Virus record (IMG/VR): IMGVR_UViG_3300020160_002689
Span: 1-20,133 of that record
DNA length: 20,133 nucleotides
Source of the DNA: a virus
Taxonomy: Duplodnaviria; Heunggongvirae; Uroviricota; Caudoviricetes
Direction: 5' to 3' (one strand)
The notes under the pieces are model-generated. The model was not told the origin of the DNA. It saw only the letters and a list, made by a program, of their open reading frames with translations, and ran no database searches. Of this stretch, positions 3,654 to 14,895 are shown piece after piece. Each line of letters opens with the position of its first letter. The stretch's first letter is position 1. The position numbers and the translations under genes were made by a program.

Positions 3654-5897
3654 ATGTTTACAATAAATTCAAATTCTTTAGATGGTACAATAACCATATC
3701 AGACAAATTTAATATATCTGCCACTGCATCTGATGTAGATGCAACTCCATATCTTAATGAAATAGATTCTGAATATATTCTTAGTTTTGGTAACTTAGAA
3801 GGTGTTAGTAAATTTACCAAATTTATTTATGATACACTAGGAATGACTGATACAAGATATTTAGTTCAATATTATAGACTATCAAGAGATGGTGAGAGAT
3901 GGACTGATTGGTATGATCTTAAAAAGAATATTGATAACTTTCCTACTATTGATCCAAAAGATAAACTAAACATTGATATTAAATGGGTAAGAAAAGGAAC
4001 TAATAAAATTGGTTCTATTAGAATATTGGAATATTCATTAGAAGGCATTATTGAAACAACATCTGTAATAGATGATGGTTCGACTGCTGTAATTGATGCA
4101 GGTGAGACCCAAATTATAAAACCACCTTACATCTTCAAAGTTTTTAGAATTGATGATGTAGAGATTATATCATCTACTGGTGTACCTGATGATTCTCTGA
4201 AATACAGATACTCTCAAGATAATGCAAGAACTTGGTCTAATTGGGAAGTTTTAACTAAAGAAAATATTAAAACTAAAAGATTTACTCCAGTAAGATTCTT
4301 CCAAGTTGAATACTCAATAGAAAATACATCAGGTTCTCAAATAAGAGTTCAGGATATTAATCTTATTGGTAACTTTCAAAATGTAACATTAGATTCTCAA
4401 AAAAGTAACTTATATGGGATAAGAGAATGTTGTCAATCTAATATAAATGGTGCTTATGATGCAAATGGTAATTTCATACCTAATACTAACTTAAACTCAA
4501 GTAGTTCAAGTTCTGGTGCAGCAGGTGGTGGAAATTGTGCAACACCAGCCACTTATAAACCAATGACTGCTGACCAACAAGCACTTCTTTATAATCCATA
4601 TAATCAAAATACTGCAGTTAATCTTCTTAATCAATTAAGTAATGATGCTCAGTTAATGTTTGGACATCAAGTTATTTATTTTGCAACAGACCCAGATAAA
4701 AATGGTTATGACTATTCATTACATGAATACTCTTTATATAATATAGTTTGTCAAGGTGACCTTAGAATATCAGTTGAGAATAATAATTTTCCTGATAGTC
4801 AAGTAGTAATGAATCAGTTTGATTTGAACTTATTCTCAACAATGGAAGTTCATGTTACTAAAGAACAATTCAAACAAATATTTGGTGTTCAAAGAAGACC
4901 AAGCAAAGAAGACTTTTTATACTTCTGTAATCTAAATAGAATGTATATTGTTGATCATGCTCAACAATTCAGAAGTTTCAACAACTCTGCAGTTTATTAT
5001 AAATTGATATTGAAAAAATACAACCAAAAAGCAAATATTCAATCTGGTACAACTGAAATTAAAAACCAAATGGATATGCTTACACAGAACTCAACTATTG
5101 ATTCATTATTTGGAGTTGAAATAGCACAAGATAAAGCAAGTATTGCCAATAAAGACCAATTCAAACCTTTAACTAAAGATCCTATCAGATTAAAATATCT
5201 TGCCACAATAGATAAAGAGTTAATTGAAAATTCTTCTACTGTAATATCTAAATCTCACTATGATTTATCATCTGTTGATTTTGGAACACCTGCAGTTGAA
5301 TATTTCAATTTAGATCCTTTATTAGAAGTATCTGATAATATTGGTTTCACTATATGGTTTAGTATTAATAATTATATATTAGATGAATATTATAATATGT
5401 TTGACTATTATGATAATCCAAATAGTTTAGGTTGGTCTGTTAACTTACAGAATGATAAAATTATAGTAATGTTAAATGAAAATCAATATGACTTTGACTT
5501 TGGTACAGGTGATGTAATTGAGTTAGAAGAAGAAACTTGGTATTGTTATGTACTTAATGTAGACCAAAGAAACAGAACAATTTCACAATATATCTATAAG
5601 AGAAATGTTGAATTTGAAGATGATGCTGCTAGATTAACAAGTACAGTATTAAAGAAAGTTCACTCTAATGAACAAGTTATTGAACCTGTTAATTATCAAC
5701 TTGAAGGAGTTGACCCTGTTATATTAGGTTCTGATATGAAGTTAACAAATGTTAGATTATTCCTTGATGTAATTCCAGAAGATACACATAATAAGATACT
5801 TAACCAATATGTAATTAGAGAAGACTCTAAATATCTTGTATTTGCAGATAATGCAAATACAAGATTATACTTACCAAATTTTCCTTTATTTGAATAA
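3654..5897 (+). CDS. Virion structural protein: T4 gp14-like neck/head-closure domain plus C-terminal LamG-like domain
   Basis: Central FGHQVIYF...EVHVTKEQF...RPSKEDFLYF...YKLILKKY resembles the gp14 family; C-terminal FTIWF...WYCYVLNV is LamG-like; TTAATATATA at 3640-3649. Confidence 0.65.
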   Translation: MFTINSNSLDGTITISDKFNISATASDVDATPYLNEIDSEYILSFGNLEGVSKFTKFIYDTLGMTDTRYLVQYYRLSRDGERWTDWYDLKKNIDNFPTIDPKDKLNIDIKWVRKGTNKIGSIRILEYSLEGIIETTSVIDDGSTAVIDAGETQIIKPPYIFKVFRIDDVEIISSTGVPDDSLKYRYSQDNARTWSNWEVLTKENIKTKRFTPVRFFQVEYSIENTSGSQIRVQDINLIGNFQNVTLDSQKSNLYGIRECCQSNINGAYDANGNFIPNTNLNSSSSSSGAAGGGNCATPATYKPMTADQQALLYNPYNQNTAVNLLNQLSNDAQLMFGHQVIYFATDPDKNGYDYSLHEYSLYNIVCQGDLRISVENNNFPDSQVVMNQFDLNLFSTMEVHVTKEQFKQIFGVQRRPSKEDFLYFCNLNRMYIVDHAQQFRSFNNSAVYYKLILKKYNQKANIQSGTTEIKNQMDMLTQNSTIDSLFGVEIAQDKASIANKDQFKPLTKDPIRLKYLATIDKELIENSSTVISKSHYDLSSVDFGTPAVEYFNLDPLLEVSDNIGFTIWFSINNYILDEYYNMFDYYDNPNSLGWSVNLQNDKIIVMLNENQYDFDFGTGDVIELEEETWYCYVLNVDQRNRTISQYIYKRNVEFEDDAARLTSTVLKKVHSNEQVIEPVNYQLEGVDPVILGSDMKLTNVRLFLDVIPEDTHNKILNQYVIREDSKYLVFADNANTRLYLPNFPLFE

Positions 5898-6935: not shown

Positions 6936-6969
6936 AAAAAGACATTATCAAATTAGATAATGTCTTTTT
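6936..6969 (-). terminator. Intrinsic terminator closing tRNA array A
   Basis: AAAAAGACATTATC-TAATTT-GATAATGTCTTTTT hairpin immediately after the last tRNA. Confidence 0.85.
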
Positions 6970-6973
6970 GTTG

Positions 6974-7054
6974 AGCTAGTGACAGGATTTGAACCTGCGA
7001 CGTTGGAGTTCCTACTTACAAGGTAGGTGCAATCGACCACTATGCGACACCAGC
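6974..7054 (-). tRNA. trnT: tRNA-Thr(TGT), extended variable region
   Basis: GCTGGTG/CACTAGC acceptor; CCTAC-CTTGTAA-GTAGG anticodon arm; 12-nt variable region; GCAGG-TTCAAAT-CCTGT T arm. Confidence 0.9.
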
Positions 7055-7062
7055 ATTTTATG

Positions 7063-7136
7063 AGCTTCTCATTGGATTCGAACCAATAACATCCACATTA
7101 CTAAAGTGGTACTCTGGCCAGTTGAGCTAGAGAAGC
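7063..7136 (-). tRNA. trnT: tRNA-Thr(AGT), A34
   Basis: GCTTCTC/GAGAAGC acceptor; CCACT-TTAGTAA-TGTGG anticodon arm (U31-U39 mismatch); standard T arm. Confidence 0.85.
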
Positions 7137-7145
7137 ATATTTTAG

Positions 7146-7233
7146 AGGTATAGGTAGGATTTGAACCTACGATGATGAAATTAATCATTACAGTTTTGCA
7201 GACTGCACCTTTCGACCACTCAGGCACTATACC
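7146..7233 (-). tRNA. trnC: tRNA-Cys(GCA), long variable arm
   Basis: GGTATAG/CTATACC acceptor, U73; GCAGT-CTGCAAA-ACTGT; 19-nt variable region. Confidence 0.9.
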
Positions 7234-7242
7234 ATTTTTCAG

Positions 7243-7315
7243 AGCTTCTGGACGGGCTCGAACCGACGACATCCTCATTACAAGTGAGGTGCTCTACCAA
7301 CTGAGCTACAGAAGC
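7243..7315 (-). tRNA. trnT: tRNA-Thr(TGT)
   Basis: Canonical cloverleaf; CCTCA-CTTGTAA-TGAGG. Confidence 0.95.
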
Positions 7316-7320
7316 ATTAG

Positions 7321-7391
7321 AGGTGCTGACTGAATTTGAATCAGTGTAGGAGGTTTTGCAGACCTCTGCCTAACCACTCGGCCACAGCACC
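7321..7391 (-). tRNA. trnC: tRNA-Cys(GCA)
   Basis: Canonical cloverleaf; GAGGT-CTGCAAA-ACCTC; U73. Confidence 0.95.
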
Positions 7392-7393
7392 AT

Positions 7394-7972
7394 TTATTTT
7401 ATTTCTAAAAGATTTTCATGTATTTCTCTATGACAATTTGCACATACTAAAATACACTTATCTAATTCATCTTTAATCTTATCCCAAGCTGTACACATAT
7501 TTTTTGATAGTGTAAAATCTTTTTTAGAGGGATCCAAATGGTGAAACTCTAATGCGGATACACACTTATTATATTCACATATAACACATTTACCACCTTT
7601 ATATTCTACTGCTTTTTCTTTTGTTCTTTTTCTAAATGTTTTTGTTCTTATATAGTTAGACTTTCTTCTATCATCATCACTATCAAATGTAAACTTTTTA
7701 TTCTCACCATATTTGGTAACGGTACTTCTACCTACACCAAATTCCTTCATTGTTTCCTCTATAGAATTTAGTTTATAAAATTCTTTCAATTTTTCAATTT
7801 CATCTTTATCTAACTTTTTACCAGAATTAAGACCTATATCATTTAACATTTCACTCTTACAAAAGTAAGAAATTAAACTTCTAGAACAATTTAATTCTTT
7901 TTGTATTTCTCTATAGCTTTTACCTTGTTTTCTTAGTAAAATTATATTTTCTTTTTTAGAACCTTCAACCAT
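7394..7972 (-). mobile_element. HNH homing endonuclease with N-terminal HTH, inserted in tRNA array A
   Basis: HTH (GKSYREIQKELNCSRSLISY); CxxC...LEFHHLDP...CANCHREIH; own TTAATATATA motif at 7990-7999. Confidence 0.9.
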
Positions 7973-8019
7973 AACATATCTTTTTATGATATATATTAAT
8001 TTTTTGGTTCTACCTTTTG

Positions 8020-8092
8020 TTGGTACTGTGGGTTACGATCCCACTACCTTTCGCGTATCAGGCGAATGCTCTACCGAGTGAGCTAAGTACCA
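8020..8092 (-). tRNA. trnI: tRNA-Ile(GAT)
   Basis: TGGTACT/AGTACCA acceptor; TTCGC-CTGATAC-GCGAA; atypical T-loop ATCGTAA. Confidence 0.9.
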
Positions 8093-8100
8093 ATATATTG

Positions 8101-8174
8101 TGATTCCTGTAGGATTCGAACCTACGACCTCTTGCATGTTAAACAAGCGCTCTTACCAGCTGAGCTAAGGAATC
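8101..8174 (-). tRNA. trnV: tRNA-Val(AAC), A34
   Basis: Canonical cloverleaf; CTTGT-TTAACAT-GCAAG. Confidence 0.9.
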
Positions 8175-8179
8175 TCTTG

Positions 8180-8262
8180 TAGGTCTACTCGGACTCGAAC
8201 CGAGATTATACTTCACGTCTCTTCCATGTAAAAGAAGGATGTTGCCATTACACCATAGACCT
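8180..8262 (-). tRNA. trnV: tRNA-Val(TAC), extended variable region
   Basis: AGGTCTA/TAGACCT acceptor; CTTCT-TTTACAT-GGAAG; 16-nt variable region. Confidence 0.88.
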
Positions 8263-8268
8263 ATTTAG

Positions 8269-8349
8269 TTGGCACAGAGGGATTTGAACCCACATTTTCA
8301 ACAACCATTTACAGTTCTCCAACTTATCAGGTTGGGCTGGTATGTGCCA
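8269..8349 (-). tRNA. Arm-rearranged tRNA-like RNA with Ile(GAT) anticodon arm
   Basis: Perfect 7-bp acceptor TGGCACA/TGTGCCA and a T arm; anticodon arm CCAAC-CTGATAA-GTTGG only 7 nt after the acceptor; D-loop-like TAAATGG lies 3' of it. Confidence 0.75.
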
Positions 8350-8354
8350 ATATG

Positions 8355-8441
8355 CTACTGGGGTGGGATTCGAACCCACGGTGGAGCTGTGCTCATCAGA
8401 TTAACAGTCTGAACCGTTCGGCCAACTACGGCAACCCAGTA
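8355..8441 (-). tRNA. trnN: tRNA-Asn(GTT), long variable arm (Tyr-like scaffold)
   Basis: TACTGGG/CCCAGTA acceptor, G73; TCAGA-CTGTTAA-TCTGA; variable hairpin GAGC-ACA-GCTC. Confidence 0.88.
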
Positions 8442-8447
8442 ATTTTG

Positions 8448-8518
8448 CTCTCCCACCAGGACTCGAACCTGGAATAACTGATTAACAGTCAGACGTGATA
8501 CCATTTCACCACAGGAGA
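8448..8518 (-). tRNA. trnN: tRNA-Asn(GTT)
   Basis: Canonical cloverleaf; loop CTGTTAA; G73. Confidence 0.93.
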
Positions 8519-8527
8519 ATATTTATA

Positions 8528-8563
8528 TAAAAGAAAAGACCCAAACTTTATGTTCGGGTCTTT
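8528..8563 (-). terminator. Intrinsic terminator between leader A and tRNA array A (candidate attenuator)
   Basis: AAAGACCCGAAC-ATAAA-GTTTGGGTCTTT-TCTTTT, ending about 10 nt before the first tRNA. Confidence 0.88.
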
Positions 8564-8587
8564 AGAAATTGTTTATAATATATGAGT

Positions 8588-8677
8588 TTATACTATACAT
8601 AACTGCTTACCCGATGTTGTGTTATTCACACAATTCGTAATCGTAATCACATTAATATTTATAGTAGTTGTTTTCAT
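8588..8677 (-). CDS. Leader peptide A, 29 aa (MKTTTININVITITNCVNNTTSGKQLCIV)
   Basis: Hand-translated; 22 of 29 residues are T/I/N/V/C, the amino-acid set of the downstream array. Confidence 0.85.
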   Translation of the reverse strand: MKTTTININVITITNCVNNTTSGKQLCIV

Positions 8678-8682
8678 TGTTT

Positions 8683-8752
8683 TATATATTAAATTTTTAT
8701 TGTCCCTTTTTGGTTTTTTTGTTTTTCTTTGATTATTTATAGTACAAAAGTA
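8683..8752 (-). promoter_or_regulatory. Tandem promoters for array A: TACTTTTG (8745-8752) and TTAATATATA (8683-8692)
   Basis: Same block as 192-250 and 9822-9881. Confidence 0.7.
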
Positions 8753-8772
8753 ATATAAAGTTTTTAATCTAC

Positions 8773-8997
8773 CTAATCTTTTATTATTTTTTTTAATTTA
8801 TTTTCTCTTTCTTCTCTAAGAGTAACATCTTCAGCTATTTCTTTATTGAATATAAGATATGTTGATCCACAACTATCACAATACCACCCATCAGTGTTCC
8901 AAGGTAAATCCTCAGGTGAATATTCAATTTCATCCTTCTTACAATGTAAACAAGGTTTCACTTCATATATCTTATCTTCAACTTTAATTAGTTTCAT
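8773..8997 (-). CDS. Small zinc-ribbon protein
   Basis: CLHC and CDSC pairs; C-terminal RENKLKKII motif. Confidence 0.75.
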   Translation of the reverse strand: MKLIKVEDKIYEVKPCLHCKKDEIEYSPEDLPWNTDGWYCDSCGSTYLIFNKEIAEDVTLREERENKLKKIIKD

Positions 8998-9010
8998 ATC
9001 TTAGTTTTTG

Positions 9011-9091
9011 TACAGGTAGTCGGACTCGAACCGACACTCTTTTCAGAACACGGTCCTAAGCCGTGCGCGTATACCATTTCGCCATACCTGC
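9011..9091 (-). tRNA. trnL: tRNA-Leu(TAG)
   Basis: CACGG-CTTAGGA-CCGTG; class II variable arm; A73. Confidence 0.95.
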
Positions 9092-9102
9092 ATATTTTTT
9101 TG

Positions 9103-9185
9103 TACCGAGAGCGGGACTCGAACCCGCACATCCTTTCAGATAATAGCCTCTTAAACTACCGTGTCTACCATTCCACCACCTCGGC
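9103..9185 (-). tRNA. trnL: tRNA-Leu(AAG), A34
   Basis: Leu scaffold GCCGAGG...TCTCGGT-A; GTAGT-TTAAGAG-GCTAT; a shifted register giving TAA does not pair. Confidence 0.85.
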
Positions 9186-9195
9186 AGGTGATTAG

Positions 9196-9276
9196 TACCC
9201 CAGATAGGATTCGAACCTATATTTTCAGTTTCCAATTACCCGTAGTTGTTTAGAAGACAACTGGGACTACTGAGGC
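9196..9276 (-). tRNA. Arm-rearranged tRNA-like RNA with Arg(TCT) anticodon arm
   Basis: GCCTCAG/CTGGGGT acceptor; GTTGT-CTTCTAA-ACAAC 8 nt after the acceptor; D-loop-like TAATTGG 3' of it; ATAGG-TTCGAAT-CCTAT. Confidence 0.75.
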
Positions 9277-9284
9277 ATATTTTG

Positions 9285-9369
9285 TATCGGGAGAGGGACT
9301 CGAACCCTCACGGACATTACTGTCCACAGATTTTTAAGACCTGCGTGTCTACCATTCCACCACCCCGAC
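9285..9369 (-). tRNA. trnL: tRNA-Leu(TAA)
   Basis: CAGGT-CTTAAAA-ATCTG; class II variable arm GGAC-AGTAAT-GTCC. Confidence 0.95.
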
Positions 9370-9372
9370 AGA

Positions 9373-9459
9373 TGGTACCGAGAGCGGGACTTGAACCCGC
9401 ACGCCACAAGGGCACAAGATTTTAAGTCTTGCATGTACTACCAATTTCATCACCTCGGC
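9373..9459 (-). tRNA. trnL: tRNA-Leu(TAA), with encoded CCA
   Basis: CAAGA-CTTAAAA-TCTTG; 3' end TCTCGGT-A-CCA. Confidence 0.95.
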
Positions 9460-9466
9460 ATTATTT

Positions 9467-9570
9467 AATTAATAGTAGGACTCGAACCTACACTAAGTTT
9501 ATTTCATCCTTAGCCATATCCTCTATATCTCTGTATAAAGTTAGGTGTTTACCAGTTCCACCATATCAAT
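9467..9570 (-). ncRNA. 104-nt tRNA-like element with no canonical anticodon arm
   Basis: ATTGATA/TATTAAT acceptor, Leu-type D arm GTG-GAACTGGTAAA-CAC, T arm GTAGG-TTCGAGT-CCTAC; 52-nt non-canonical middle. Confidence 0.6.
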
Positions 9571-9572
9571 TG

Positions 9573-9644
9573 TGACCCCACAGGGATTCGAACCCCGATT
9601 GAAAGCTTAGAAGGCTTTAGTCCTATCCATTGAACGACAGGGCC
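9573..9644 (-). tRNA. trnR: tRNA-Arg(TCT)
   Basis: Canonical cloverleaf; AAAGC-CTTCTAA-GCTTT. Confidence 0.95.
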
Positions 9645-9653
9645 AATTTAAAA

Positions 9654-9687
9654 CAAAAAACCCAAAACTTTTTGAGTCTTGGGTTTT
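9654..9687 (-). terminator. Intrinsic terminator between leader B and tRNA array B (candidate attenuator)
   Basis: AAAACCCAAGACT-CAAAA-AGTTTTGGG-TTTTTTG, ending about 10 nt before the first tRNA. Confidence 0.88.
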
Positions 9688-9714
9688 GTTATTTGTTATA
9701 ATACTTTTAATTGA

Positions 9715-10996: not shown

Positions 10997-11329
10997 TTAG
11001 ATTTTTTTCTCAACATAGGTAACTATTTCACCAGTTTCAAATCCTTTCTCAATTAATAAAGGTAGTGATGAATCTTTACACCAAGCATAAATAGTGTAGT
11101 CTTTGTAGTTCTCTAATACATATTCCCATCTGGTTTCCCATAAAAGTCTGTATATTCCCATTCTTCTGTAGTCAGAATGTACCCAAGCATCAAGAAACTT
11201 TATCTTGTTATCTTTCTCAATATTCATAAATATATGACCAACTGCAAAGTTGTTTGTTTGATCATTTGCAATCCACATTTCTAAGTTCTGTGCATTTGTT
11301 TTAAGGTGAGTGATAATAAGGTTTTCCAT
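10997..11329 (-). CDS. GNAT-family acetyltransferase
   Basis: WVHSDYRRMGIY motif A and LLIEKGF motif B. Confidence 0.8.
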   Translation of the reverse strand: MENLIITHLKTNAQNLEMWIANDQTNNFAVGHIFMNIEKDNKIKFLDAWVHSDYRRMGIYRLLWETRWEYVLENYKDYTIYAWCKDSSLPLLIEKGFETGEIVTYVEKKI

Positions 11330-12094: not shown

Positions 12095-12961
12095 ATGAAG
12101 ATATGTAAAAGGTGTGGTGTAGAAAAAGATTGTGATAAATTTTCTATAACTAAGACATCAAAGGATGGTTTGAATTCTTGGTGTAAAGATTGTAAAAGTG
12201 AGTATAGTAAATCTAAAAGAGAGAATAGAGTAATAAAAGAGACTGGGACCAAATTTTGCACAAATTGTGAAATTGAAAAAGGTGTTGTATTGTTTGGCAT
12301 AGGTAATAATAAAGATGGTTTAAATAATTGGTGTAAAGATTGTAACAATGAATATGGTAAGAAATACTATGTTGAAAATAAAGAGAGATTAAAACCTATA
12401 AGGAAAGCTTGGAAGGAAAATAATTTAGATAGGTTAAAAGATTACCAAAGTATTAGATATACTAAAATAGATAAAGATAGGTTAAGGTTATATTATATTA
12501 ATAATATAGATAAAATAAAAGAAAATAAATCTAAATATAGGAATACTAATGAATATAAAAATTGGTTAAAATTATACAGACTAAAAAATAGTTGGAAAGA
12601 TAGATATAGATCTAGTCTTAAAAATGTTTTGAAGGGATTTGGTAAAGAAAAACATGATAAAACTAATATAATTTTAGGTTATTCATCATTAGAATTTAAG
12701 ATTCATATAGAATCTCAGTTTAATGATACAATGAGTTGGGATAATAGAGATAGTTTTCATATAGATCATATAGTTCCTATATCAGGATTCAGAGAAGATA
12801 CTCCTATAAATATAGTAAACTCATTAGAAAATTTAAGACCATTAAGTGGTATTGAGAACTTATCAAAAAATAATTCTATTGATTATAGTAGATTGGAACT
12901 TTATAATAGGTATATTAAGTATTTAAAAGAGGATTTTGTAAATCTATTAAATAATATATAG
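12095..12961 (+). mobile_element. HNH homing endonuclease with two N-terminal zinc-finger repeats
   Basis: Two CxxC..K...F...KDGLNxWCKDC repeats; FHIDHIVP...NLRPL...NLSK; TTAATATATA at 12057-12066. Confidence 0.88.
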
Positions 12962-13541: not shown

Positions 13542-13993
13542 ACAAGATATTGTTTAGTCATATCTTTACCACCAAATTGTTCGATCTTTCTAATTGCAGA
13601 TGATGAAATATGTTCATATTCTCTATCACAAGTAAGATAAATTACATTTACATCTTTTTTGAAATCATCCACAAATCTATATTGATTTACTTCATAGTCT
13701 AAGTCAACACCATTTCTTAGACCTCTAATGATAACTACTTTATAACCTTCTTTCTCATAGTCTTCAATAAGTTCATGTAGAAACTTATTATAAGTAATTA
13801 TCTTTCTATTGATTCTTTGTTCTAATAAGTGTAAATCTTCATCAGACTTTGGTGTACTTAACTTATCAGGATTAACACCAACTGCAATTAGAACATTACC
13901 TCTACCAAATATTCTTTCAGCTTTCTCAAGTATATTAATGTGTCCAATGTGCATTTTGTTAAAGGAGCCTGGATAAATTGCTATTGTTTTCAT
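13538..13993 (-). CDS. coaD: Phosphopantetheine adenylyltransferase
   Basis: AIYPGSF..HIGH, IIRGLR..DLDYE, ISSSAIR. Confidence 0.85.
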   Translation of the reverse strand: MKTIAIYPGSFNKMHIGHINILEKAERIFGRGNVLIAVGVNPDKLSTPKSDEDLHLLEQRINRKIITYNKFLHELIEDYEKEGYKVVIIRGLRNGVDLDYEVNQYRFVDDFKKDVNVIYLTCDREYEHISSSAIRKIEQFGGKDMTKQYLV

Positions 13994-14895
13994 AATTCTT
14001 GTTGTATTATATAATTTATTAATTTCTTATCTTTATAAGATATTCTTATTAGTTTAATATTATTTGATAGACAATAATTGGTTTTAATATTATCATTTTT
14101 AACTACTTCATTAAATCCTTCAATACCACCAAATCTTTCAATTGGCTTGTAATGTTGAACACCATCAAACTCAATACAGATATTATAATCTGGTAGATAA
14201 AAATCAAATGGTAAAGGTCTTTTGATTCCTCTACAATTTTCAAATGTCTTCTCTTTAATATATTTAACTTTTTTTTCTATTAGTATATTTTCTACCTTAG
14301 ATTCTCCTTTACTTGAACTTTTACACAATTTACAGATTGAACCACTAATTAAATTAATAGGTTTTATTTCAAAAGCACCATGTTCTTTACAAATTAGTTT
14401 TATAGGTGTTAAAGTATCAATATAATTAATTTGTTTGAAATCATATTTATTACTAAATAGACCTCTTTCTTTTAGTCTTTTGATAAAATCATCATTGGTT
14501 AATCTATTATTTCTTGATATTTTTTCTCTTACTTCTAATCTTTTTGCAGGATTATTATCTCCTGTAATACTAGGTACCTTAGTACCATATTTTGGATTAT
14601 CTTCTCCAATTAATCCAAATATTCCATTCTTTTCACCTTTTTTACCACAACTTCTACAAAAATGTTCATTTATTTCTATATAAATATCTTGTAGTCTCTT
14701 TTCTATTATATTTTTACAACCATCACATAATACTTTAATTTTACTCCTTCTTAGTGTAGATTTTCTTAATAGTGACCAGTGAACATTGTATTTATACCCA
14801 ATTTCTATTTCTTCATTGAGAAGTTTTTCTAAAAATATTTTATTTTTAGTATTTGATACATATATTTCTATTTCTTCATTTTCTTTTATATACAT
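13990..14895 (-). mobile_element. Homing endonuclease-like protein: zinc-ribbon/NUMOD repeats plus Vsr/PD-(D/E)xK-like nuclease domain
   Basis: CxxC pairs, NPAK repeat, SKGE...LPFDFYLP..NICIEFDGVQHY; TTAATATATA at 14917-14926. Confidence 0.8.

Follow-up and report, generated by a model that had tools for sequence, protein, structure and literature searches.

Within a 20,133-nucleotide stretch of viral DNA (positions 1 to 20,133 of the IMG/VR record IMGVR_UViG_3300020160_002689, the whole of which we call the window), the minus strand of positions 8269–8349 carries a gene of 81 nucleotides (nt) that resembles a transfer RNA (tRNA) with anticodon GAU. This gene is a genuine member of a conserved, phage-borne class of tRNAs that are not built as cloverleaves, of which motif scans and a covariance model recovered 52 distinct genes in about 36 records. 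Outside organelles, the cloverleaf is regarded as universal. Judging from conservation and covariation in the sequences of this family, the gene probably specifies a working elongator tRNA-Ile with a permuted core connectivity, in which the strands of the D stem would flank the anticodon arm and the D-loop would follow it. We refer to such genes as rewired.

Layout of the rewired tRNA-Ile gene

Compared with the Rfam tRNA model RF00005 the gene scores 34.5 bits (gathering threshold 29, E 5.7e-4 over the whole window), the lowest of the 18 Rfam tRNA matches in the array to which it belongs. The RNA read from the minus strand is UGGCACA UA C CAG C CCAAC-CUGAUAA-GUUGG AGAA CUG UAAAUGGUUGUUGAAAAU GUGGG-UUCAAAU-CCCUC UGUGCCA A. 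The Rfam alignment contains U8-A9, a perfect anticodon arm, the T arm and a 7-bp acceptor stem, with 4 nt replacing the 15-nt D arm and some 24 nt inserted 3′ of the anticodon arm. The anticodon arm has a 5-bp stem and a 7-nt loop with U33 and a purine at 37, the acceptor stem has 7 bp and is followed by a discriminator base, and the T arm consists of a 5-bp stem with one U-U mismatch and a 7-nt loop of the UUCRAAU type. Around the anticodon arm closes a 3-bp helix, CAG/CUG (the clamp), separated from it by an internal loop of C on the 5′ side and AGAA on the 3′ side. No D hairpin is found between position 9 and the anticodon arm, either here or in any family member. With the covariance model R1, made from eight MAFFT-aligned sequences with the structure written out, the gene scores 98.2 bits. 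ARAGORN places at 8268–8357 a forced 90-nt Ile shape overlapping the adjacent Asn gene, which is a miscall.

The original prediction had given these letters and this order of parts exactly as the sequence and the Rfam alignment have them, including the missing D hairpin and a D-loop-like TAAATGG 3′ of the anticodon arm, whose GG is near-invariant in the family. Its description of an anticodon arm standing where the D arm should be is right in that the molecule is rearranged, and is put more exactly as a swap of the two D-stem strands around the anticodon arm. The parts of the gene, all on the minus strand, are the following.

8269–8349 (−): whole rewired tRNA-Ile(GAU) gene, 81 nt, CCA not encoded (next bases CUA); RF00005 34.5 bits, R1 98.2 bits
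8343–8349 (−): acceptor 5′ strand UGGCACA (RNA 1–7), pairs with 8270–8276; 7/7 pairs covary in the family
8340–8342 (−): U8, A9 and linker C10; U8 and A9 invariant in all members
8337–8339 (−): clamp 5′ strand CAG (RNA 11–13), read as D-stem 3′ strand (22–25); pairs with 8312–8314, covaries
8319–8336 (−): hinge C14 (8336) and anticodon arm CCAAC-CUGAUAA-GUUGG (RNA 15–31); 5/5 stem pairs covary; U33, A37
8326–8328 (−): anticodon GAU, in a 7-nt anticodon loop
8315–8318 (−): AGAA, 3′ side of the internal loop between anticodon stem and clamp (44-region equivalent); A-rich, 3–5 nt in nearly all members
8312–8314 (−): clamp 3′ strand CUG (RNA 36–38), read as D-stem 5′ strand (10–13); covariation, RNAalifold
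8294–8311 (−): 18-nt relocated D-loop and variable-region element UAAAUGGUUGUUGAAAAU (RNA 39–56); UA, GG and AAAU tail invariant or nearly so
8277–8293 (−): T arm GUGGG-UUCAAAU-CCCUC, one U-U mismatch; Rfam alignment, family covariation
8269–8276 (−): acceptor 3′ strand UGUGCCA (8270–8276) and discriminator A73 (8269); A73 in 29/29 Ile members

Covariation of the secondary structure

The layout is best assessed in a MAFFT alignment that was not fitted to the model, where 99.4% of the cells are paired, compared with 31–42% when the 3′ partners are slid by one to three columns. Compensatory changes occur at 17 of its 20 pairs, those of the clamp included, and all four helices covary. Within the clamp the two variable positions each appear as four pair types (CG, GC, AU and UA). 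A larger alignment of 41 sequences, given less weight because it is fitted to the R1 model, is 96.7% paired, with all three clamp pairs covarying. From the alignment alone RNAalifold returns the identical structure, and no helix inside the 18-nt element. The closing of CAG and CTG around the anticodon arm, as first proposed, is thus backed both by covariation of the clamp and by RNAalifold. A joint MAFFT alignment of the Ile and Arg-UCU genes was excluded from the pair counts, the Arg clamp and anticodon arm being one column off in it.

The same layout recurring in 52 sequences with compensatory changes in every helix is far beyond chance, and the expectation that a covariance-model search would find homologues with covarying stems came true. 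It also settles, for practical purposes, the reading of the gene as a decayed pseudogene that suffered a deletion of the D arm and an insertion in the variable region. This reading could appeal to the low Rfam score, the mismatch in the T stem and the canonical twin nearby; pseudogenes, however, do not covary, and with about 36 records sharing one layout and RNAalifold agreeing, it is refuted in all practical respects and deserves hardly any credence.

Membership and distribution of the family

Scans of IMG/VR with the shared motif and the T loop gave 10 contigs, and relaxed patterns 13 and then 22. R1 scores of the family members are 40–102 bits, and the canonical tRNAs of the window reach at most 26.8 bits; in about 1 Mb of unrelated viral control DNA, R1 matched one contig only. 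The records with family members are 31 IMG/VR contigs, two huge phages that are uncultured (LR745206 and LR756502), the isolate Pseudomonas phage IME180 and two short contigs of metagenome-assembled genomes. One pattern found in 22 viral contigs was met in only two contigs among 596 Gb of bacterial and archaeal genomes, and both of these cellular matches are dense tRNA islands of a phage-like type on short contigs of metagenome-assembled genomes, so that the class looks phage-specific. A BLAST search of the 81-nt genes against isolated phages, a method too insensitive for this purpose, gave only LR745206, LR756502 and three Pseudomonas phages. The pattern GTAA-N0-1-TGG-N4-TGAAAAT yielded mostly chance matches.

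Members share U8-A9 followed by 1–2 nt, a 3-bp clamp around the anticodon arm with an internal loop of 1 nt (5′) and 3–5 nt (3′), and, directly 3′ of the clamp, a UA(R)YUGG element of 12–19 nt whose final pyrimidine covaries with R. The gene at 8269–8349, which is of the A...U type, agrees with the class in everything tested (clamp layout, element, and an Ile anticodon on a phage contig). Anticodons are restricted to Ile-type (GAU in 19 genes, UAU in 10, CAU in 3) or Arg (UCU in 12, UCG in 4, ACG in 2, CCU in 2). All members but one are 76–83 nt long. A 91-nt variant at L141:5228–5318 (−) has a CCU (Arg) anticodon arm and 13 extra nt inside the clamp, and a subfamily with short elements (12–13 nt, ending in ACAU or GUAU) is represented by L145:3281, L014:9824, L015:4121, L015:5269 and L021:6597. 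Standard tools see the class poorly: ARAGORN recovers 3 of 41 rewired genes, and Rfam scores lie just above threshold. One rewired Arg-UCU gene (L161:2933–3016) is called "Ile(aat)" by ARAGORN.

A probable relocated D-loop

The element 3′ of the clamp starts U-A-R-Y-U-G-G, where U, A and GG are invariant or nearly so, and the T loop UUCRAAU is near-invariant as well. This start would correspond to the pattern A14-R15-Y16-Y17-G18-G19 of an ordinary D-loop. The third nucleotide of the element and the last one before the T stem are A-U in 48 cases, G-C in four and mixed in none, and the G-C type appears in at least three lineages, which is the behaviour expected of an R15-Y48 Levitt pair as far as sequences can tell. 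A particularly clear comparison is offered by the gene in L016, whose acceptor, anticodon and T arms are identical to those of 8269–8349, and which differs in one clamp base, in the change from UAAAUGG to UAGCGG, and in the partner, which goes from U to C.

A further sign comes from the nucleotide 3′ of GG: all 19 parsed Arg members have an A there, compared with 2 of 28 Ile members (p ~2e-10, uncorrected for relatedness). For bacterial arginyl-tRNA synthetase (ArgRS), the chief identity determinant of arginine tRNAs is A20 (PMC9976931). On the Ile side, A73 is present in 29 of 29 members. Taking together the near-invariant GG, the Levitt-type covariation and the A20-equivalent A of the Arg members, we read the relocated element as a D-loop; within UAAAUGGUUGUUGAAAAU the proposed equivalents would be A14, A15, G18-G19, U20 and, as Y48, the final U. 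Apart from these, no tertiary covariation beyond lineage effects was detected among the unpaired positions, and three "A,A" cases in that count are parsing artefacts. The GG may, as suggested earlier, contact the T loop from the side of the variable region, and the conservation of both partners, the R15-Y48-type covariation and the A at the A20-equivalent position of the Arg genes lend this indirect support.

Proposed topology and function

In an ordinary tRNA the chain passes from the D stem along its 3′ strand (22–25) and through 26 into the 5′ side of the anticodon stem at 27, and positions 10–13 precede 14–21. The 5′ strand of the clamp, with one hinge base, leads into the anticodon arm and would hence be the equivalent of 22–25, and the 3′ strand, since the D-loop-like motif comes next, the equivalent of 10–13. 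After U8-A9 and a linker base the chain would thus enter what is normally the 3′ strand of the D stem, pass directly into the anticodon arm, and return via a short A-rich loop to the other D-stem strand, to the D-loop (UAAAUGG, with G18-G19) and through an A-rich tail to the T stem. In conventional numbering the order would be 8-9, [22-25], 26, anticodon arm, [44-like loop], [10-13], [D-loop], tail to Y48, T stem. The acceptor could still stack on the T stem and the clamp, in the manner of a D stem, on the anticodon stem. The elbow could likewise keep its contacts, between GG and the T loop, between U8 and A14, and in the R15-Y48 Levitt pair, so that only the order of parts along the strand would be permuted. 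Since the D stem of an ordinary tRNA has U8 at its upper end and 43/44 at its lower end, the new joins look geometrically reasonable by textbook reasoning.

Host enzymes for which the acceptor/T-arm half is sufficient could carry out trimming and CCA addition, and the host isoleucyl-tRNA synthetase (IleRS) could charge the RNA through its intact anticodon loop and A73. A GAU anticodon would read AUU and AUC, and in this way supply the commonest Ile codon of the phage. The phage of the window has 28% GC; AUU accounts for 53% of the Ile codons and AGA for 90% of the Arg codons, and the rewired Ile gene and the rewired Arg-UCU gene of the same array would therefore read the dominant codons of both kinds.

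Arrays that lack a canonical Ile tRNA argue for a role in translation, the rewired genes filling the slot in L155, L010, L015, L056, L139/L150 and L153. The array of L155, for instance, has 19 canonical tRNAs for 16 amino acids together with rewired GAU, UAU and UCG genes. The isolate Pseudomonas phage IME180, with a complete genome of 49.5 kb, has a rewired Arg-UCU gene as its only Rfam tRNA match (MF788075.1 44867–44946 (−), L163:1496–1575), unannotated in GenBank. BLAST suggests the same rewired Arg gene in phages HHBS10_2 and vB_PaeM_Ty.

A gene of the IleRS family was not found in 9 of 10 carrier records, nor one for ArgRS in any of five, and the host synthetases are for this reason the likely chargers. 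A dedicated synthetase partner encoded by the phage was considered as a general feature and rejected, an IleRS gene near a rewired gene being present only in LR745206. That enzyme (735 aa; TIGR00392, 674 bits, model positions 2–803 of 861) is short at its C-terminal end, and is encoded at L166:1426–3633 (~382.0–384.3 kb), about 4 kb from the rewired Ile/Arg pair.

Several points weigh against the reading of 8269–8349 as a working tRNA of permuted connectivity. The covariation statistics ignore phylogeny, and the L-shaped fold is a prediction from sequence covariation. The clamp has only 3 bp and is without the canonical D-stem sequence; the second pair of the T stem is the U-U mismatch; and in a single-sequence fold the proposed structure has −20.4 kcal/mol, compared with −21.3 kcal/mol for the minimum free energy structure, in which the middle is paired differently. 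That alternative middle pairing was rejected, as it is not conserved. In LR745206 the T arm of the rewired Ile copy is degenerate, and some members may be decaying. Most loci are partial, and a missing canonical twin may lie outside the flank examined. In the genome of the window itself a canonical Ile-GAU twin lies 180 nt away, and the rewired gene may be redundant there.

Why the rewiring is kept is a more speculative matter. It is possible, although we would regard it as doubtful, that it offers escape from some factor of host or phage, a defence tRNase for instance, which recognises the canonical D arm or elbow. A nuclease-resistant tRNA was also among the roles named in the original prediction. 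Literature on tRNA-cleaving defences, documented together with the counter-measures of phages (PMC10264068), makes nuclease escape plausible. The joint reading, in which a permuted tRNA has spread across many phage lineages, is L-shaped, is charged by host IleRS or ArgRS, and is invisible to a tRNA-directed defence nuclease of the host or to a weapon with which a phage destroys the tRNAs of its host, is likewise put forward tentatively, with the odds against it.

Alternative explanations

Of the alternatives, the one that survives best is a decoy or sponge, whose Ile anticodon loop would soak up a host tRNA nuclease, toxin or modification enzyme with no role in translation. Canonical twins with the same anticodon are kept alongside the rewired gene in the genome of the window and in its close relatives L016 and L144, as would suit a decoy, and defences that cleave tRNAs are well documented, as are phage counter-measures (PMC10264068). 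The decoy role named in the original prediction is nevertheless disfavoured, given that in many arrays, several of them large, rewired genes are the only Ile tRNAs, and that a rewired Arg gene is the only tRNA of IME180. Features for charging and EF-Tu (A73, the A20-like A, a 7-bp acceptor stem, a 5-bp T stem) are as strictly conserved as the anticodon loop and would be unnecessary in a decoy for an anticodon nuclease, and we consider this explanation improbable.

A tRNA-like RNA outside translation, acting as a primer, a regulatory RNA or a processing or punctuation signal in a polycistronic tRNA transcript, seems very improbable. The array is tightly packed, and tRNA shapes in it could act as signals for RNase P or RNase Z, but a canonical anticodon loop (U33, R37) and the restriction to Ile-type and Arg anticodons with matching identity elements would be unexplained if the anticodon were never read, and a punctuation element would need neither a covarying anticodon stem nor the A20-like base.

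Finally, a mature cloverleaf might be produced by splicing or permutation of the precursor at the RNA level, as in the permuted tRNA genes of red algae. RNA-level repair of rearranged tRNA genes does occur in Cyanidioschyzon and archaea. In the genes described here, however, the acceptor strands are already at the gene ends and a cloverleaf would require the swap of an internal segment, for which we know of no bacterial machinery; no bulge-helix-bulge motif or other splice signal was seen, and the covarying clamp helix would have no purpose, all of which makes this explanation barely credible.

The tRNA array and its genome

The rewired Ile gene is one of two in the same array, and both have canonical counterparts there.

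6973–9644 (−): tRNA array with both rewired genes; 4–8 nt gaps to neighbouring tRNA genes; 18 Rfam tRNA matches
9196–9276 (−): rewired tRNA-Arg(UCU), 81 nt, clamp CCC/GGG, anticodon 9252–9254, element UAAUUGGAAACUGAAAAU at 9221–9238; Rfam 39.5 bits, R1 63 bits
8019–8092 (−): canonical cloverleaf tRNA-Ile(GAU), twin of the rewired Ile gene; ARAGORN, Rfam 60.3 bits
9572–9644 (−): canonical tRNA-Arg(UCU), twin of the rewired Arg gene; ARAGORN, Rfam

A canonical Ile(GAT) gene in the array and a look-alike at 9196–9276 had both been pointed out beforehand, and both are there; the look-alike has the same build and is an Arg-UCU gene. Its RNA, GCCUCAG UA GU CCC AGUUGU-CUUCUAA-ACAACU AC GGG UAAUUGGAAACUGAAAAU AUAGG-UUCGAAU-CCUAU CUGGGGU A, has the same order of parts as that of 8269–8349 and is missed by ARAGORN. 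The clamps of the two genes differ (CAG/CUG and CCC/GGG) and both pair, and their 18-nt elements are near-identical.

The record is an 84-kb fragment with 37 tRNAs called by ARAGORN. The nearest relatives of this phage contig are LR745206 and LR756502, whose counterparts of its peptidase gene share 56–59% protein identity with it and lie at a similar distance from the rewired pair in all three. Those genomes fall in the Mahaphage clade, with predicted Bacteroidetes hosts (PMC7162821). The best explanation of the source is a very large, AT-rich phage related to the "Mahaphage" genomes of 635–735 kb. The array turns up again in metagenomes from freshwater, wastewater and estuaries across several studies.

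As for expression, matches to 8000–9700 in four metatranscriptome runs are mostly short pieces of canonical tRNAs of other organisms, none of them clearly spanning 8269–8349. A scan of the window for sigma-70-like promoter sites gave fewer than shuffled controls. Terminator-like hairpins number seven, compared with 1.6 expected in shuffles, and three strong ones, at 9657–9687, 8535–8563 and 6936–6969 (−), split the array into blocks. The one at 8535–8563 is only 17 nt upstream of the block with the rewired Ile gene, with no promoter-like site seen between them.

The array holds further unusual tRNAs. Four oversized ones on the minus strand, all with a canonical tRNA of the same amino acid next to them, are Thr-UGU (6973–7054, 82 nt), Cys-GCA (7145–7233, 89 nt, with a long variable arm), Val-UAC (8179–8262, 84 nt) and Asn-GUU (8354–8441, 88 nt). 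Arms like those of class II are unusual on tRNAs other than Leu, Ser and Tyr, and L162 shares the habit (His 84 nt, Gln 85 nt, Asp 89 nt). A tRNA-like gene of 104 nt at 9467–9570 (−), which Rfam scores at 35.9 bits and ARAGORN does not find, has acceptor, D and T arms; a hairpin of 7 bp with a 6-nt loop replaces the normal anticodon arm, and a second hairpin is also present.

Among the protein-coding neighbours, an open reading frame (ORF) resembling HNH/homing endonucleases by PHROG (7394–7972 (−)) lies within the array and adjoins the canonical Ile-GAU gene, and two others of this kind follow downstream at 12095–12961 (+) and 13990–14895 (−), also by PHROG. An ORF of 747 aa (3654–5897 (+)) adjoins the array; it has no match in Pfam or PHROG and is unrelated to the IleRS of LR745206. 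About 1.4 kb from the array, a small ORF (10997–11329 (−)) has a borderline match to GNAT acetyltransferases (20.6 bits, cut-off 20.7).

Implications

The study of huge phages called tRNAs with tRNAscan-SE only (PMC7162821). Considering this together with the poor recovery by ARAGORN and the unannotated gene of IME180, phage tRNA inventories and the analyses of codon supply built on them probably undercount Ile and Arg, and miscalls indicate that automated inventories may contain errors in addition to gaps. That only Ile and Arg forms occur, and that some phages keep canonical twins alongside them, points to selection for something specific, which could be immunity directed at tRNAs. If the permuted connectivity is real, the class would be a natural experiment on which parts of a tRNA are needed by the ribosome, EF-Tu, RNase P, the CCA enzyme, modification enzymes and class I synthetases, and under the joint reading with escape, cloverleaf connectivity would not be required for bacterial tRNA function. 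The cultured phages with the Arg form make the class directly testable. The rewired scaffold, if accepted by native synthetases, could also serve tRNA engineering.

Comparison with known tRNA classes

The first impression that this architecture falls outside the described classes of tRNA agrees with the searchable literature, where we found no published description of a phage tRNA with rewired connectivity, and the class is apparently unpublished. With canonical tRNA-Ile(GAU) and tRNA-Arg(UCU) it shares the 7-bp acceptor stem, U8-A9, the anticodon arm of 5 bp and 7 nt with U33 and A37, the 5-bp T stem with its UUCRAAU loop, the GG, A73 (Ile) or the A20-like A (Arg), and the location in phage arrays. 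It differs from the canonical cloverleaf in that the strands read as those of the D stem lie on either side of the anticodon arm, and in that the D-loop-like element comes 3′ of them and runs into the T stem.

The lack of a D hairpin and an extended helix below the anticodon stem are shared with the D-arm-less tRNAs of mitochondria (mammalian mt-tRNA-Ser(AGY), nematode/Ascaris mt-tRNA-Ser(UCU)). These still function in translation (PMC7609411, PMC9427863), and are in that sense a precedent for the acceptance of such shapes by ribosomes and synthetases. They are described from mitochondria only and are reduced and flexible (PMC7609411), with a short connector, no G18-G19, weakened T-loop contacts and co-evolved organellar enzymes, whereas the phage class has a full length of ~81 nt, the GG, a full T loop and a Levitt-type pair, and would have to work with the ordinary bacterial machinery. 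The gene at 8269–8349 retains the GG and T-loop features and lies on a phage contig, not in an organelle, and accordingly does not belong with the mitochondrial forms.

An altered order of parts along the DNA is also seen in circularly permuted and split tRNA genes (Cyanidioschyzon merolae; Nanoarchaeum). There the break falls between halves and the mature RNA is a normal cloverleaf after processing; in the rewired class the termini are normal and the permutation is internal and should persist in the mature RNA. The acceptor strands of 8269–8349, at both ends of the gene and paired with each other, set it apart from circular permutation.

Extra nucleotides between the anticodon and T arms bring to mind class II tRNAs (with a long variable arm) and allo-tRNAs (with 8/4 or 9/3 acceptor branches), which are likewise non-standard tRNAs of bacteria and phages mined from metagenomes. 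In both of these groups the D arm is normal and the additional segment folds as a hairpin (PMC5389517). The extra 12–19 nt of the rewired class are without a conserved helix and replace the D-loop, and 8269–8349 has no D arm and, by RNAalifold, no helix in its 18-nt element.

Lastly, phage tRNAs escape anticodon nucleases through point mutations in the anticodon loop of a normal cloverleaf (PMC10264068). The rewired genes resemble them as phage copies whose departures from the host tRNAs could thwart host tRNases, but their loop is canonical and it is the body that is rewired, with a hypothetical link to defence. If the joint reading were true, this would be an escape in body plan, distinct from escape mutations in the anticodon loop.

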